Source: a virus
Lineage: Duplodnaviria; Heunggongvirae; Uroviricota; Caudoviricetes
Virus record (IMG/VR): IMGVR_UViG_2706794686_000006
DNA length: 4,420 nucleotides
Reading direction: 5' to 3' (one strand)
Under the pieces are notes generated by a model that worked only from the letters and a program-made list of their open reading frames with translations, was not told the origin of the DNA and made no database searches. Below, in pieces: positions 1 to 4,420 of this stretch; positions within the stretch are counted from its first letter, which is position 1; the number at the start of each line of letters is the position of its first letter. Made by a program: the position numbers and the translations under genes.

Positions 1-51
1 GGGGAATATCTCCCCGGCAGCCTTCAGGGAAAAATATCATCAGATGGCTGC

Positions 52-405
52 TTAAAAAAAGAACAAATGGTAGTGTCCGCTATTGCCAGTACACCTCAAT
101 TGCTCTGCGGCTTCGCTCAGAGCTGGCGTATGTTCCCGGCCTACTGATTCACACAGGTAATCAACGAAACCGGACACCAGTTTTCGTTCGCGAGGCGTGA
201 TCGCCCCACCGACCGGAGTCCAGTAATCGAAACCCAGTTGCAGGAGTTTGAAAAAACGCTTGTGGAATGCGTAGTTACACACACGCTTAAAGTCTGCGTG
301 TATCCACTCACCTATTTTGATTTGATGCAGAAAATCGCAACTCTCCGGCGTCGCCGGGAGAAGTAATCCGGAAGAGGTTTGTTTGACCAGTTGTATATGT
401 GCCAT
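52..405 (-). CDS. hypothetical prophage protein, about 117 aa (MAHIQLVKQTSSGLLLPATPESCDF...)
   Basis: Open frame on the minus strand ending at TAA (plus 52-54). The first ATG is at 405-403 with GGAG about 7 nt upstream. The track start at 447 is a TTG overlapping the upstream stop, so I prefer ATG 405. No family recognised. Confidence 0.55.
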   Translation of the reverse strand: MAHIQLVKQTSSGLLLPATPESCDFLHQIKIGEWIHADFKRVCNYAFHKRFFKLLQLGFDYWTPVGGAITPRERKLVSGFVDYLCESVGREHTPALSEAAEQLRCTGNSGHYHLFFF

Positions 406-731: not shown

Positions 732-1064
732 CTTCAGAATCCTTCCAGATAAATAGCTCTCCCCTGTTCGGGGTCCATCCCTCTTCTCCCTGCGCGCTAC
801 NNNNNNNNNNNNNNNNNNNNNNNNNNNNNNNNNNNNNNNNNNNNNNNNNNNNNNNNNNNNNNNNNNNNNNNNNNNNNNNNNNNNNNNNNNNNNNNNNNNN
901 NNNNNNNNNNNNNNNNNNNNNNNNNNNNNNNNNNNNNNNNNNNNNNNNNNNNNNNNNNNNNNNNNNNNNNNNNNNNNNNNNNNNNNNNNNNNNNNNNNNN
1001 NNNNNNNNNNNNNNNNNNNNNNNNNNNNNNNNNNNNNNNNNNNNNNNNNNNNNNNNNNNNNNNN

Positions 1065-1156
1065 TCACAGAGGTCTTTCCTCGTTACCAGTGCCGTCACT
1101 ATGACGGTTAAACAGATGACGATCAGGGCGATTAACATCGCCTTTTGCTGCTTCAT
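1065..1156 (-). CDS. hokD: Hok/Gef-family type I toxin (membrane peptide); only the first 30 codons are visible, the 3' end is in the N-block
   Basis: Minus-strand translation from ATG 1156-1154 gives MKQQKAMLIALIVICLTVIVTALVTRKDLC, a single hydrophobic helix followed by the RKDLC motif typical of Hok proteins. It matches my recollection of the E. coli HokD/RelF N-terminus. Checked codon by codon against the sequence. Confidence 0.8.
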
Positions 1157-1438
1157 AGCCTGCTNNNNNNNNNNNNNNNNNNNNNNNNNNNNNNNNNNNN
1201 NNNNNNNNNNNNNNNNNNNNNNNNNNNNNNNNNNNNNNNNNNNNNNNNNNNNNNNNNNNNNNNNNNNNNNNNNNNNNNNNNNNNNNNNNNNNNNNNNNNN
1301 NNNNNNNNNNNNNNNNNNNNNNNNNNNNNNNNNNNNNNNNNNNNNNNNNNNNNNNNNNNNNNNNNNNNNNNNNNNNNNNNNNNNNNNNNNNNNNNNNNNN
1401 NNNNNNNNNNNNNNNNNNNNNNNNNNNNNNNNNNNNNN

Positions 1439-2083
1439 GATAAGAGGGCGTCCCTGAGATTTGCGGTGTAGATTGGTATCGCGCAGAGAATACACACAGC
1501 CACAATATTCCTGCTGATAGAATTTTTCGCGCTTGCTGATTTCAATCATACGGGACGAGCCGCCCTGCTTGCGCCAGTTATAATCCCAGTACACCATGCC
1601 CGGATAATGCGCGACGGCTCGCCGCCCACAGTCGTTAACCTGCTGCATATTTTTCCAGCGTGAAATGCCCAGTGAACTGCTGATCACACTGAAACCATTT
1701 TCAGCGGCGTACAGCGCTGTCCGCTCAAAACGCATGTCAAAACACATGGTGCAACGGATCCCTCGTTCGGGCTCCCATTCCATTCCTTTGGCTCGTTCAA
1801 ACCAGTTGTCTGTGTCGTAATCAGCATCAATAAACGGCACGCCGTGTTGTTCAGCAAAGCGAATATTCTCATCCTTACGAATTAAATACTCTTTCTGAGG
1901 ATGAATGTTCGGGTTGTAGAAAAAGATGGTGTAGTCGATTCCCGAGGCCTGAAGCGCCTCCATCACCTCACCGGAACATGGAGCACAGCAAGAGTGCAGT
2001 AGTAGTTTGTTTGCCCCGTTTGGGAGCTCCAATTTGGGCCGTTTGAAATCAGCAACTGTCATAAATATGTTTATTGGGGTCAT
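1439..2083 (-). CDS. queH: QueH-like (DUF208) Fe-S protein, epoxyqueuosine reductase homologue; 3' end lies in the masked block
   Basis: Minus-strand ORF from ATG 2083 (alternative ATG 2062). The translation carries the cysteine motifs I associate with QueH/DUF208: [20 protein letters not shown] and YCGCVYS. About 215 codons are visible before the N-block. Neither ATG has a Shine-Dalgarno sequence; the upstream region is AT-rich. Confidence 0.75.
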
Positions 2084-2230
2084 AAAAATATCAAAGAGTG
2101 TAGCATTAGAACGGGGCTATCGGAAACAGATGTGTGACTGCTCCCCGCCCTTTCGGGTGGTCTCCTGATGATTTGAGGGTGCAGAAATCCCTCCGGTTAA
2201 GGATTAAATTTTTAACAGTGCTAAATTTAA

Positions 2231-2644
2231 TTATTCAGTTCTGGATTTTGTCGCCCTGCGTATCCGCGCTTTCGCGTTACGCTCAATCTGTATCAGCTTT
2301 TCTATATTTCTCCGCCTTTCCTGTTCCTCCTGGCGCAATAGCCTTACATCATCTGCCAGTCTGGTTTCTCTTTTTGCCACAGAGAGCATCCAGTCAAACG
2401 GCTCCACAACCGCACCGCAGATTTTACAGCGGACCTGACGCTCTTTTTCGTCAACCCGTACAGAGGCGTGATGGCAATATGGTCTTTCCGATGGCTCATA
2501 AAGAAAATTAACCTGATTACGAGGGTCATCCTCTTTTACCGGAAATAAAACGATATTGCTTAACTCATCTTCTGGTTTTATTTCCATGCTCCTCTCCTTT
2601 GATGCGAATGCCAGCGGTAATTGAAGCCTGATAGCTAATTTCAT
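2231..2644 (-). CDS. zinc-ribbon plus coiled-coil protein of unknown function (start at ATG 2644, or ATG 2587 giving 118 aa)
   Basis: Minus-strand ORF. ATG 2644 abuts the upstream stop (TGAATG) with GGAGG 11 nt upstream. An internal ATG at 2587 is preceded by AAAGGAGAGGAG. The product has PYCHH...CKIC (a C/H ... CxxC ribbon-like pattern) and a charged C-terminal helix (RLLRQEEQERRRNIEKLIQIERNAKARIRR). Confidence 0.6.
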   Translation of the reverse strand: MKLAIRLQLPLAFASKERSMEIKPEDELSNIVLFPVKEDDPRNQVNFLYEPSERPYCHHASVRVDEKERQVRCKICGAVVEPFDWMLSVAKRETRLADDVRLLRQEEQERRRNIEKLIQIERNAKARIRRATKSRTE

Positions 2645-3067
2645 TCACAGTATCGCCTCCTGAAAATTACCCTGATAGAAAGCCAGTACACGCTGCATAG
2701 CTTCGCTCTTCCGGCACTCGCGACAGATTATATTCAGGCGCCTGTCGTAGCGGCGTATTTCTCCGTCAGGTAATGACCAGATAAGGTCCGGATCAACAAC
2801 AACCGGTTTCCTCACCTTTACTCTCGAGAGTTTTTTGCGGGCGCTTTGCCAGTCCTTGCGAGCCTGTTCAGACGGGAATAAGCCGTAGCCAGAATTATAT
2901 ACATCACCACTTGCGACCAGTTCTATGCATAAGCGACCGACAGACGCACGACTGATACCTGTTTCATCTGACAACTGCCGAATCGTGACCCGACCGTCCT
3001 GATGCACGAGTTCCACAATTCGCGTCTTCAGTTCTTCCCGCTGTTCGGGAGTAAAAGGTTTCGCCAT
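2645..3067 (-). CDS. winged-helix/HTH DNA-binding protein, 140 aa
   Basis: Minus-strand ORF with ATG 3067-3065 preceded by AGGAGG (3077-3072); stop TGA at plus 2645-2647. The N-terminal segment TIRQLSDETGISRASVGRLCIELVASGDV looks like a helix-turn-helix recognition unit. It sits 14 nt downstream of the preceding gene's stop. Confidence 0.7.
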   Translation of the reverse strand: MAKPFTPEQREELKTRIVELVHQDGRVTIRQLSDETGISRASVGRLCIELVASGDVYNSGYGLFPSEQARKDWQSARKKLSRVKVRKPVVVDPDLIWSLPDGEIRRYDRRLNIICRECRKSEAMQRVLAFYQGNFQEAIL

Positions 3068-3081
3068 AAATCCTCCTGAAA

Positions 3082-3918
3082 CTACTTAACAACCCTCGAA
3101 TGGCTAACATTCGGACGCCAGCTCTCCCAGTTAAAATTCACCCAGCGNNNNNNNNNNNNNNNNNNNNNNNNNNNNNNNNNNNNNNNNNNNNNNNNNNNNN
3201 NNNNNNNNNNNNNNNNNNNNNNNNNNNNNNNNNNNNNNNNNNNNNNNNNNNNNNNNNNNNNNNNNNNNNNNNNNNNNNNNNNNNNNNNNNNNNNNNNNNN
3301 NNNNNNNNNNNNNNNNNNNNNNNNNNNNNNNNNNNNNNNNNNNNNNNNNNNNNNNNNNNNNNNNNNNNNNNNNNNNNNNNNNNNNNNNNNNNNNNNNNNN
3401 NNNNNNNNNNNNNNNNNNNNNNNNATTCGCAAACGAGCATTTACGGTGCAACGGCTGGATGCCTGAGCGATTCNNNNNNNNNNNNNNNNNNNNNNNNNNN
3501 NNNNNNNNNNNNNNNNNNNNNNNNNNNNNNNNNNNNNNNNNNNNNNNNNNNNNNNNNNNNNNNNNNNNNNNNNNNNNNNNNNNNNNNNNNNNNNNNNNNN
3601 NNNNNNNNNNNNNNNNNNNNNNNNNNNNNNNNNNNNNNNNNNNNNNNNNNNNNNNNNNNNNNNNNNNNNNNNNNNNNNNNNNNNNNNNNNNNNNNNNNNN
3701 NNNNNNNNNNNNNNNNNNNNNNNNNNNNNNNNNNNNGGCGCGAACAGGCCCTGGTATTCATTGGCGATGCTGTGTCGAATCACCTGCTCAGGTGTAAAAC
3801 CCTGCTGACGGAATTTTTCCAGTTCCCGTATCGCCCCGTTAGCGCCCTGCTCCGTTCGAATCGGTTTTCGCAATGCCTGTCTGAACCGGACCCACTCATG
3901 CCAGAGTGTTTCCGGCAA
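3082..3918 (-). CDS. C-terminal portion of a replication-initiator/replisome-organiser-like protein; middle is N-masked; probably not an independent gene
   Basis: The visible 60 codons (3918 to 3739) read LPETLWHEWVRFRQALRKPIRTEQGANGAIRELEKFRQQGFTPEQVIRHSIANEYQGLFA. From memory this resembles the conserved C-terminal domain of phage replication proteins (W..F...R...P.T......L..F...G......V..SI.N.W.GLF). The nominal start is TTG with no SD, and the frame is open upstream to 3984. Stop TAG is at plus 3082-3084. Continuity across the two N-blocks cannot be verified. Confidence 0.45.
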   Translation of the reverse strand: MPETLWHEWVRFRQALRKPIRTEQGANGAIRELEKFRQQGFTPEQVIRHSIANEYQGLFAXXXXXXXXXXXXXXXXXXXXXXXXXXXXXXXXXXXXXXXXXXXXXXXXXXXXXXXXXXXXXXXXXXXXXXXXXXXXXXXXXXXXXXXXXIAQASSRCTVNARLRXXXXXXXXXXXXXXXXXXXXXXXXXXXXXXXXXXXXXXXXXXXXXXXXXXXXXXXXXXXXXXXXXXXXXXXXXXXXXXXXXXXXXXXXXXXXXRWVNFNWESWRPNVSHSRVVK

Positions 3919-3950
3919 CCAATCGGGCAGCTCAATAGCCTCCGGCTCGA

Positions 3951-3957
3951 ATTTTTT
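3951..3957 (-). other. A_AAA_AAU heptamer in frame C, at the frame C to frame B break (A6 run)
   Basis: The minus strand reads cta aaa aat tcg in frame C (L K N S). Frame B, at -1 relative to it, reads tct aaa aaa ttc gag and continues into the conserved C-terminal domain. Confidence 0.4.
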
Positions 3958-3997
3958 AGACGCTCGTTTTTGGCGAGGGGGAGATCAGTATTTAGAT

Positions 3998-4015
3998 CTT
4001 CCTCTTCCTCTTCCT
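3998..4015. repeat. perfect tandem hexamer (CTTCCT)x3; on the minus strand (AGGAAG)x3
   Basis: Read directly: cttcct cttcct cttcct at 3998-4015. In minus frame C it encodes EEEEEE; on the plus strand it produces the poly-Ser tail of the spurious 3100..4032 ORF. Confidence 0.9.
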
Positions 4016-4018
4016 CTG

Positions 4019-4060
4019 GTAACGCTTTTTGATCCGTTTGTGTAACGCTGGCAGCGTTAC
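4019..4060. repeat. cluster of GTAACGCT motifs including a 19-bp perfect palindrome (iteron- or operator-like)
   Basis: GTAACGCT occurs at 4019-4026 and 4042-4049, and its reverse complement AGCGTTAC at 4053-4060. The span 4042-4060 (gtaacgctg g cagcgttac) is a perfect inverted repeat with 9-bp arms. Degenerate copies lie at 4087-4091 (GTTAC) and 4102-4106 (GTAAC). The direct copies are 23 bp apart. Confidence 0.5.
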
Positions 4061-4070
4061 CTTTTCGTTT
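4042..4070 (+). terminator. candidate plus-strand intrinsic terminator (8-bp stem, 3-nt loop, then CTTTTCGTTT)
   Basis: The palindrome 4042-4060 can fold as an 8-bp stem with loop GGC in plus-strand RNA and is followed by a T-rich tract at 4061-4070. The minus-strand version is not followed by U residues. No convincing promoter was found upstream, so this is tentative. Confidence 0.3.
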
Positions 4071-4087
4071 CAGTTCGCGTATTTTTG

Positions 4088-4351
4088 TTACTCGCTCGTT
4101 TGTAACCGCCCGTTTTTTTTAGAGCTTTTTCCGTTATGACGTTCAAAGTTAGGTAGAGAAAGCCCTCCGTCATTTTCGACCAGCCATCCAACCTGAATTA
4201 ACGCATCAGCAAAACCAGACATAAAAGTGATGCGATCTATTGCACTTTTTGTAACGCCGCGAGCGTTACAATCTGCATTACCGTCTATCATTTGTTGATC
4301 CGCCCATGCCCAGAAGCGAATAACCTGAGGTAGCCTGAGTTTAACGGACAC
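4088..4351 (-). CDS. 87-codon ORF, possibly the N-terminal DNA-binding segment of the same replication-initiator-like gene
   Basis: Minus-strand ORF starting at GTG 4351, with AGGAAGGA immediately upstream at poor spacing; an internal ATG lies at 4291. It ends at TAA (plus 4088-4090). The translation (FWAWADQQMIDGN...ADALIQVGWLVENDGGLSLPNFERHNGKSSKK) loosely resembles N-terminal domains of phage replication initiators; this is a weak call made from memory. Confidence 0.45.
   Translation of the reverse strand: MSVKLRLPQVIRFWAWADQQMIDGNADCNARGVTKSAIDRITFMSGFADALIQVGWLVENDGGLSLPNFERHNGKSSKKNGRLQTSE
4112..4118 (-). other. A_AAA_AAC heptamer in the zero frame of the 87-codon ORF, at the frame A to frame C break (within an A8 run)
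   Basis: The minus strand reads tct aaa aaa aac ggg in the ORF frame (S K K N G). The -1 frame entered from this heptamer is open for 112 codons (4118 to 3783). Confidence 0.4.
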
Positions 4352-4389
4352 TCCTTCCTGAAATAGAATGGCATCAGAAGGAGCTAATA

Positions 4390-4420
4390 ATGAGCAGAAA
4401 AACCCAACGTTACTCTAAAG
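4390..4420 (+). CDS. 5' end of a divergently oriented gene (MSRKTQRYSK...), runs off the window
   Basis: ATG at 4390 is preceded by GAAGGAG (4377-4383) with a 6-nt spacer, a strong translation-initiation context. Only 10 codons are visible, so identity is unknown. Confidence 0.3.
   Translation, partial: MSRKTQRYSK

Follow-up and report, generated by a model that had tools for sequence, protein, structure and literature searches.

How Asp, Asn, His, and Tyr codons are decoded is influenced by queuosine (Q) in tRNA, a modification that has also been tied to stress, metal homeostasis, biofilm formation, and virulence. In Escherichia coli, the final step of its synthesis relies on an imported vitamin, B12, which this organism does not make de novo. 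A second type of enzyme for the same step is QueH, and QueH proteins were reportedly validated genetically by Zallot et al. in 2017. The E. coli enzyme, QueG, requires B12 (PMC4646009, PMC5175355), and QueH has been described both as a non-orthologous replacement of QueG (PMC5372724) and as an alternative to the cobamide-dependent enzyme (PMC6461909). Here, we analyzed a 4,420-nucleotide stretch of viral DNA (IMG/VR record IMGVR_UViG_2706794686_000006, Caudoviricetes; the whole stretch is referred to below as the window), which is a piece of a Rac/Qin-like lambdoid prophage of E. coli or Shigella and which carries a queH gene on its minus strand. We think it probable that this gene encodes a working QueH-type epoxyqueuosine reductase that was captured together with about 80 nucleotides (nt) of its own 5′ region, has spread among prophages, and completes Q without B12.

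The minus strand of positions 1439 to 2083 translates as 215 codons without a stop, and the translation matches the PF02677 (QueH) profile of Pfam over its full length (profile positions 1 to 174 of 175; E = 1.6e-65; 220.9 bits against a cut-off of 23.5). A sequence-only reading of the window had assigned the gene to QueH (DUF208) from its cysteine signature, and profile search, motifs, and fold all bear this out; YCGCVYS and the other residues that it quoted are found in the translation. The sole solved relatives are the Thermotoga maritima QueH structures 7lc5 and 7lc7 (E = 5e-22), with which the CC, CxxC, and CxC cysteines are in register. In the alignment, HSCCAPCS and RCTMC pair with HVCCAPD and RCERC of T. 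maritima, and YCGCVYS pairs with YCGCVFS. Across 36 sequences, reaching down to 36% identity, C25, C26, C29, C104, C107, C187, and C189 are invariant, as is G188. We take it that the CC and CxxC pairs bind the [4Fe-4S] cluster of the T. maritima enzyme, an assumption that is partly backed by the entry for a C9S mutant (9d86). The residue after CCAP is Cys in the prophage protein and Asp13 in T. maritima, where it has been probed by a D13N structure (9dco). Among 104 diverse family representatives (50%-cluster representatives, found with the visible 208 amino acids [aa] as the query), Cys occupies this site (CCAPC) in 100 and Asp in 3; the prophage QueH bears the majority form, and the CCAPD of T. 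maritima is a rare one. The cysteine of a further motif, NDCG, is not essential, since Ser replaces it in the most divergent E. coli allele (from an O7:H15 strain; locus L009, 5988-6656); consistent with this, T. maritima QueH lacks that cysteine too.

An AlphaFold 2 (AF2) model built from the 36-sequence alignment has a predicted local distance difference test score (pLDDT) of 96.2. When this model was compared with solved structures by Foldseek, it matched 7lc5 with an E value of 4.7e-15, a root mean square deviation of 1.2 Å, and a target-normalized template modeling (TM) score of 0.92, while the runner-up folds (TtuA, LarE, and GMP synthase, which are adenine-nucleotide-alpha-hydrolase-like and distant) gave E values of 7e-5 or worse. 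Taking homology and predicted structure together, the identity of the enzyme as a QueH is well supported.

The limits of the gene differ from those first proposed. The minus-strand frame at 1439 to 2083 is real and free of stops, but the gene probably starts at the ATG at 2062 (MTVADF...) and extends into the masked stretch beyond 1439. We place the start at 2062, rather than 2083, because the N termini of 11 homologues align there, because the Prokaryotic Genome Annotation Pipeline (PGAP) uses 2062 in a 99.8%-identical record, and because the ATG at 2083 is not conserved, reading ATT in the divergent O7:H15 allele and in the Klebsiella plasmid copy. As an unmasked guide, we used a 41.7-kb stretch (L001) around the match in E. 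coli FDAARGOS_944; the unmasked core of the window (1439 to 3147) shares 99.8% identity with that strain and with E. coli FDAARGOS_943. In this nearest unmasked relative, the C-terminal tail reads KIGQLHYGKEEKE followed by the stop and contains no further cysteine. The stop would accordingly fall near position 1397, a coordinate that is uncertain by up to about 13 nt because the window has 13 nt more than L001 somewhere in 1165 to 1438. That a full-length QueH is encoded, with all of its cysteine motifs in place, is confirmed.

The nearest cellular relatives of the prophage protein are the chromosomal QueH proteins of Erwinia, Photorhabdus, Providencia, Proteus, Gibbsiella, Ewingella, and Pantoea (80 to 86% identity). 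In Providencia, queH lies among core genes of the tmcA, purC, and dapE type, and in Photorhabdus it also lies outside any phage. Judged by these homologues in core-gene contexts, the prophage queH is an auxiliary metabolic gene of cellular origin. The earlier statement that enterobacteria use QueG for this step is correct for E. coli, whose complete genomes all have queG (5426 of 5426), but not for the order as a whole. A sister lineage (90 to 93% identity) is found on Klebsiella IncF plasmids, and 302 plasmid records encode a QueH. Two of the Klebsiella copies (L013 and L014; 92.8% identical) are on plasmids that are conjugative or mobilizable, with TonB/TolA-like fragments, a TIR-domain protein, an IS3 element, and Exc1/Exc2 entry-exclusion genes as neighbors. 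In the scenario that we favor, a housekeeping queH of Enterobacterales would have been captured into the accessory slot that separates the hok/nin region of Rac/Qin-like lambdoid phages from their replication module and would then have spread by prophage recombination, with the sister lineage spreading to plasmids. The synonymous divergence (dS) of queH is below that of the neighboring genes and therefore fits a module spread by recombination into diverged backbones.

Within E. coli, queH is present in 995 of the 5426 complete genomes (18%), nearly always as a single, chromosomal copy, and PGAP names it “epoxyqueuosine reductase QueH” in every listed E. coli record. Given the universal presence of queG, all 995 carriers have both genes. 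Carriers include O157:H7, O104:H4, avian pathogenic E. coli (APEC) O1, and strain 042, to which a cluster look-up adds Shigella sonnei, Shigella boydii, Escherichia albertii, Enterobacter, Klebsiella, and Citrobacter. Among viral sequences, 215 IMG/VR contigs encode a relative, and we surveyed the slot in the 80 closest of these. The sequence-only reading had considered the gene to be in an unusual place and had suggested looking at the same position in related prophages; when this was done, the slot and the orientation were identical in 80 of 80 contigs and in every annotated locus sampled. Nor is the gene rare in E. coli. Upstream of the slot, the order is (DnaC-like)-(DUF1627)-DUF977-(zinc-ribbon); downstream are hokD and DUF968/RusA or Rem/DUF1367 genes. 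DUF977 precedes queH in 75 of the 80 contigs, and in the remaining five there is nothing upstream of the zinc-ribbon gene or of queH itself. Related prophages without queH are much more common, the flanking genes matching in 4309 genomes as opposed to 995 for queH; in strain VL40, for example, the DUF977 and zinc-ribbon genes are present and queH is absent.

The isolated phage HannyBb also has queH, where it is listed as a “hypothetical protein.” The corresponding PHROGs group, phrog_3217, is of “unknown function,” and its profile begins at Met34 and lacks the CCAPC motif; such a truncated profile would explain why phage annotators label the gene as hypothetical. By tblastn, QueH matched 24 further INPHARED records. 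One of these, MT835504 (“UNVERIFIED Bacteriophage sp.,” fecal; L095), was considered as an instance of a phage QueH and rejected, as it is a piece of bacterial chromosome that encodes ABC transporters, argininosuccinate lyase, and topoisomerase I. We have discounted the fecal, Staphylococcus, and Listeria “phage” matches because MT835504, the sole record opened, proved to be of this kind; this discounting leaves aside the “Acinetobacter phage MD-2021a” records (330 to 380 kb) among the INPHARED matches. Database counts of phage QueH are inflated by chromosome fragments similar to MT835504.

Upstream of queH, conservation begins sharply about 80 nt before the ATG, and the DNA beyond 2142 is unrelated between prophages. 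This block contains TGCTACACT (Table 1), which is unchanged in seven aligned E. coli prophage or phage alleles and in the Klebsiella IncF plasmid copy; over 25 different upstream contexts, its conservation is 95% or higher. From this conservation, we read TGCTACACT as an extended -10-like element and a candidate promoter for queH alone. Expression of queH in the lysogen, from this site, is plausible. The leader is AT rich, G+C making up about 26% of the 35 nt in front of the ATG. The possibility of an upstream riboswitch or other RNA element was considered and rejected, as an Rfam search of L001 19000-21300 found only sok, and the fold z score of -3.2 was driven by a window-specific hairpin that is missing from other alleles. 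That GC-rich hairpin (GACCGCCCGAAAGGGCGGGG; 2143-2175, minus strand) lies just upstream of the conserved block, has no T run, and is backbone specific. On the other side of the gene, about 65 nt after the queH stop are kept in all contexts, and here a promoter-like site, TTGATT-18-TAGAAT, faces the downstream cargo. It lies at L001 19908-19937, corresponding to the masked positions ca. 1346-1375 of the window, and could serve the downstream genes.

If the enzyme is active in E. coli, as we think probable, this iron-sulfur (Fe-S) protein would reduce epoxyqueuosine (oQ) to Q at position 34 of tRNA-Asp, -Asn, -His, and -Tyr without cobalamin. A queH lysogen should then form Q independently of B12, because QueG needs B12, which E. 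coli cannot make; Q would thus be completed in the lysogen when no B12 is available and, through the early-right transcript, in the induced cell as well. A passage of PMC6850298 that cites Frey 1988 states that cells growing in glucose-salts medium that lacks B12 retain oQ in their tRNA. The earlier suggestion that the gene supplies Q under B12 limitation fits this established knowledge; a fitness benefit may follow.

Several points weigh against this interpretation. Only codons 1 to 208 of queH are visible in the window (1439-2062), the final 13 codons and the stop being in the masked stretch, and an NCBIfam scan gave no family for the prophage QueH, although PGAP names the protein as such. 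A consensus promoter scan calls no sigma-70 site upstream of queH, prediction of intrinsic terminators on the queH strand finds none on either side of the gene, and no Shine-Dalgarno sequence precedes it. Given that no sigma-70 site was called and that there is no isolating terminator, queH may be silent in the lysogen and expressed from the early-right transcript only. The benefit of the enzyme may also be small, as the host has QueG and the gut usually holds corrinoids, and we know of no phenotypic difference between oQ-tRNA and Q-tRNA. The promoter scan does not call TGCTACACT because the site has no usable -35 hexamer. The sequence-only reading had noted both the missing Shine-Dalgarno sequence and the AT-rich upstream region, each of which is evident, and had taken them to suggest independent, moron-like expression. 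The extended -10-like motif that travels with the gene speaks for the latter idea, but the lack of a called promoter and of a flanking terminator does not. As in a moron, queH is dispensable, in the sense that some closely related prophages have it and others do not; no terminator of its own is predicted.

These same observations are the basis for a different reading of the same enzyme, namely, that QueH serves the lytic cycle only, being made as a delayed-early product from the early-right promoter so as to replenish Q-tRNA ahead of the burst of late protein synthesis and remaining silent in the lysogen. queH will certainly be within the early-right transcript after induction. It is codirectional with, and directly downstream of, the cro-like, ydaT, O-like, DnaC-like, and DUF977 genes, with no terminator predicted between those genes and queH and no canonical promoter called in front of it. 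A role confined to the lytic cycle nevertheless strikes us as rather unlikely. The extended -10-like motif accompanies queH into a plasmid and into unrelated prophage contexts, and the 208 visible codons are intact in the midst of a decayed-looking prophage (with a NinB-like gene cut by IS600, a frameshifted initiator-like gene, and a loss in ydaV), which fits use by the host. Codon use in the prophage is also unremarkable. The fraction of NAU among NAU and NAC codons is 0.54 in 35 prophage genes, with late genes equal to early ones, versus 0.62 in 7 flanking host genes, a small sample; the earlier proposal that queH biases NAU versus NAC decoding gains nothing from these figures.

The slot immediately downstream of queH holds other accessory genes in some prophages. 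Between queH and hokD, a Dcm and NgoMIV-like restriction-modification pair is present in 11 of the 80 contigs, and the Kiwa genes KwaA/KwaB are present in 4; one other contig, which is truncated, shows Dcm but not its partner. L003 4806-6816 and L011 4153-5792 are instances of such an occupied gap. PADLOC confirms KwaA, KwaB, and the type II restriction enzyme of these neighboring slots with strong matches. Because the queH-hokD gap can hold restriction-modification or Kiwa genes, queH lies at the edge of an accessory and defense hotspot, with hok/sok beyond it. One may ask, then, whether QueH itself has a function in conflict, either because, as the sequence-only reading had proposed for anticodon nucleases, the state of Q34 alters sensitivity to such enzymes or to colicins, or because the enzyme permits the loss of BtuB, the B12 receptor that is also a phage and colicin receptor, without the loss of Q. 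The Klebsiella plasmid copies, near genes for a TIR-domain protein and entry exclusion, could be read in the same way. We consider such a function improbable. Adjacency to a hotspot is weak evidence, QueH matched none of the PADLOC families, and the protein is so close to the housekeeping copies that there is no sequence sign of changed function; moreover, we know of no nuclease that discriminates oQ from Q.

At the other extreme, queH might be a neutral passenger that hitchhikes in a recombination hotspot and is of use to neither phage nor host. In its favor, every genome also has a chromosomal queG that makes the gene redundant, and most related prophages lack it. However, all seven E. coli prophage and phage alleles that were read are intact, and pairwise ratios of nonsynonymous to synonymous divergence (dN/dS) among the six distinct alleles are 0.025 to 0.049, with dS reaching 0.44. 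Neighboring phage genes are less constrained over the same loci (dN/dS of 0.07 to 0.32 for DUF977 and 0.09 to 0.11 for YdaV, with HokD mostly higher). queH is under strong purifying selection, and we therefore regard the passenger explanation as very improbable. Scarcely credible is the idea that QueH acts on something other than tRNA, such as a 7-deazaguanine base in phage DNA or a free nucleoside: we know of no epoxyqueuosine-type DNA base, and a DNA-modification role is unlikely because the annotation of the 32-kb prophage (50-odd features) includes no DpdA/TGT-like protein and no FolE, QueC, QueD, or QueE of preQ0 synthesis. Phages do use the preQ0 branch for DNA modification (PMC6884629), but that same study found no QueA, QueG, or QueH homologue in the viruses it covered, DNA-modifying phages included.

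Table 1. Positions of queH, its 5′ region, and annotated neighbors in the window
Feature	Position	Strand	Evidence and remarks
queH coding sequence (CDS)	ca. 1397..2062	-	221 aa in nearest unmasked relative; Pfam, 7lc5, AF2, PGAP CDS in NZ_CP065613
In-frame upstream extension MTPINIF (ATG at 2083)	2063..2083	-	Probably 5′ leader, not coding
Conserved 5′ block, ca. 80 nt, moves with queH	2063..2142	-	Upstream alignments from 4, 7, and 25 distinct contexts
TGCTACACT, extended -10-like (TG, one base, TACACT)	2097..2105	-	Ends 34 nt before the 2062 ATG; candidate queH promoter
hokD toxin gene, partly masked	1001..1156	-	PGAP; visible peptide MKQQKAMLIALIVICLTVIVTALVTRKDLC; usual downstream neighbor
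118-aa hypothetical protein, phrog_1621	2231..2587	-	PGAP CDS; PHROGs 6.4e-56; zinc-ribbon-like CxxC pair
DUF977/Ren-like gene (also annotated “LygF”)	2645..3067	-	PF06163, 1.1e-33; phrog_142; end of replication module

The prophage is integrated beside ybhA/modC. On the minus strand, the genes run in the order cro-like, ydaT, initiator-like, DnaC-like ydaV, DUF977, the 118-aa zinc-ribbon protein, and QueH, followed by hok/sok, a 95-aa protein, DUF1367 (NinB-like), DUF1364, and DUF1133, which we take to be the Q-like gene, and then by four tRNA genes, lysis genes, and head and tail genes. The sequence-only reading had seen queH as cargo in a prophage, and this setting is upheld: the gene is accessory cargo of the early-right region, between replication genes with DUF977 on one side and hok/sok with nin-like genes on the other. 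The four tRNA genes (Ile, Arg, Thr, and Gly; L001 17060-17370) lie between the Q-like gene and the lysis genes, and none is a queuosine substrate. Flanked by the lysis genes and the terminase genes is an opposite-strand gene for a DedA-family membrane protein (L001 14600-15112), which looks like another moron.

The hok/sok locus, a type I toxin-antitoxin system that is complete here, follows queH directly (positions 1001-1156 and, in the masked part, 1151-1339; L001 19576-19901); its sok antisense RNA (Rfam RF01794; 117 bits; L001 19726-19901) overlaps the 5′ side of hokD. On the upstream side, the 118-aa zinc-ribbon gene is an optional insert between DUF977 and queH, present in 15 of the 80 queH contigs. 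Its product has a weak Zn_Ribbon_TF match, under the curated Pfam cut-off, and a charged helical tail; phrog_1621 is of “unknown function,” and the protein also occurs in Shiga toxin 2a (Stx2a) phages without queH.

Other parts of the window bear lesions. The DUF1367 (NinB/Orf-like; phrog_319) gene at 99-405 on the minus strand is halved by IS600 and retains Pfam positions 1 to 102 of 198. Relative to FDAARGOS_944, the initiator-like gene (within 3148-4420) has a 10-bp deletion (AGGGGGATTT) and a 2-bp insertion that turns T6 into T8, so that its frame is broken, and the DnaC-like ydaV region has lost about 180 bp. The lesions at 3148-4420 reflect either a decaying prophage or homopolymer sequencing error. 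The terminus of IS600, an IS3-family insertion sequence (IS), occupies window positions 1 to 98 and abuts the truncated DUF1367/NinB-like gene; IS600 is present in up to 43 copies per genome, and on plasmids too, which suggests an IS-rich host such as Shigella.

The QueH family, its reaction, and the RefSeq label of QueH are already known. We found no paper discussing a prophage or phage QueH in the full-text literature searched, and the presence of queH in a temperate phage lineage, its frequency, and its constraint appear to be unrecorded there. About one in five complete E. coli genomes (O157:H7, O104:H4, and APEC among them), and Shigella too, would carry, on a phage, a bypass that needs no B12 and is subject to strong purifying selection, so that strains may differ in tRNA modification under B12 limitation owing to their prophage content. 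Phage annotation pipelines miss the gene because of the “unknown function” label in PHROGs, as the HannyBb entry illustrates. A more ambitious and, we think, somewhat doubtful possibility is that we are dealing with a lysogenic conversion of translation, in which a phage QueH sets the oQ/Q state of the four tRNAs with GUN anticodons, uncoupled from B12 and from BtuB. If this were true, QueH would be the first enzyme acting in the tRNA-level steps of queuosine synthesis that, to our knowledge, a virus encodes, and its conservation would reflect a selectable difference between oQ-tRNA and Q-tRNA, be it in translation, in stress tolerance, or in resistance to tRNA-directed toxins. queH would also give a first handle on whether oQ and Q differ functionally. 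Should the gene instead prove to be silent or to have no phenotype, it would simply add one to the housekeeping genes captured in prophage hotspots.

Compared with known systems, the locus resembles, in its setting, the lambdoid morons and accessory cargo that lie between the replication genes and the Q gene, of which relBE upstream of hokD in Qin of K-12 is an example. It shares with them variability, non-essentiality, a fixed hotspot, compactness, and a short private 5′ region, and it differs in having a housekeeping-type metabolic product and, in place of flanking terminators and an established promoter, a candidate promoter only. With the 7-deazaguanine gene sets of phages (FolE, QueC/D/E, DpdA, and ArcS/Gat-QueC), it has in common that queuosine-pathway genes are carried by a phage; those sets, however, represent the early, preQ0 branch and act on DNA, whereas queH represents the last, tRNA-level step, none of their genes is annotated in this prophage, and Hutinet et al. 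2019 (PMC6884629) state that they found no QueA, QueG, or QueH homologue in the viruses that they analyzed. E. coli QueG (b4166) has the same substrate and product and is likewise an Fe-S enzyme, but the two are non-homologous (PMC5372724), and QueG is B12 dependent and core (5426/5426), while queH is accessory (995/5426). T. maritima QueH (PF02677/DUF208/IPR003828; 7LC5, 7LC7, and 9DEU) matches the prophage protein in family, fold, cysteine set, approximate size, and, presumably, in the conversion of oQ34 to Q34 on tRNA without cobalamin; the two are only 30% identical, the prophage protein has Cys in place of Asp13, and its gene resides in a temperate phage rather than a chromosome. The nearest cellular relative is the chromosomal queH of other Enterobacterales, to which the prophage gene is 80 to 86% identical over its full length, with all motifs invariant; there, the gene stands among core genes, whereas here it is carried by a prophage in a host that already has QueG.

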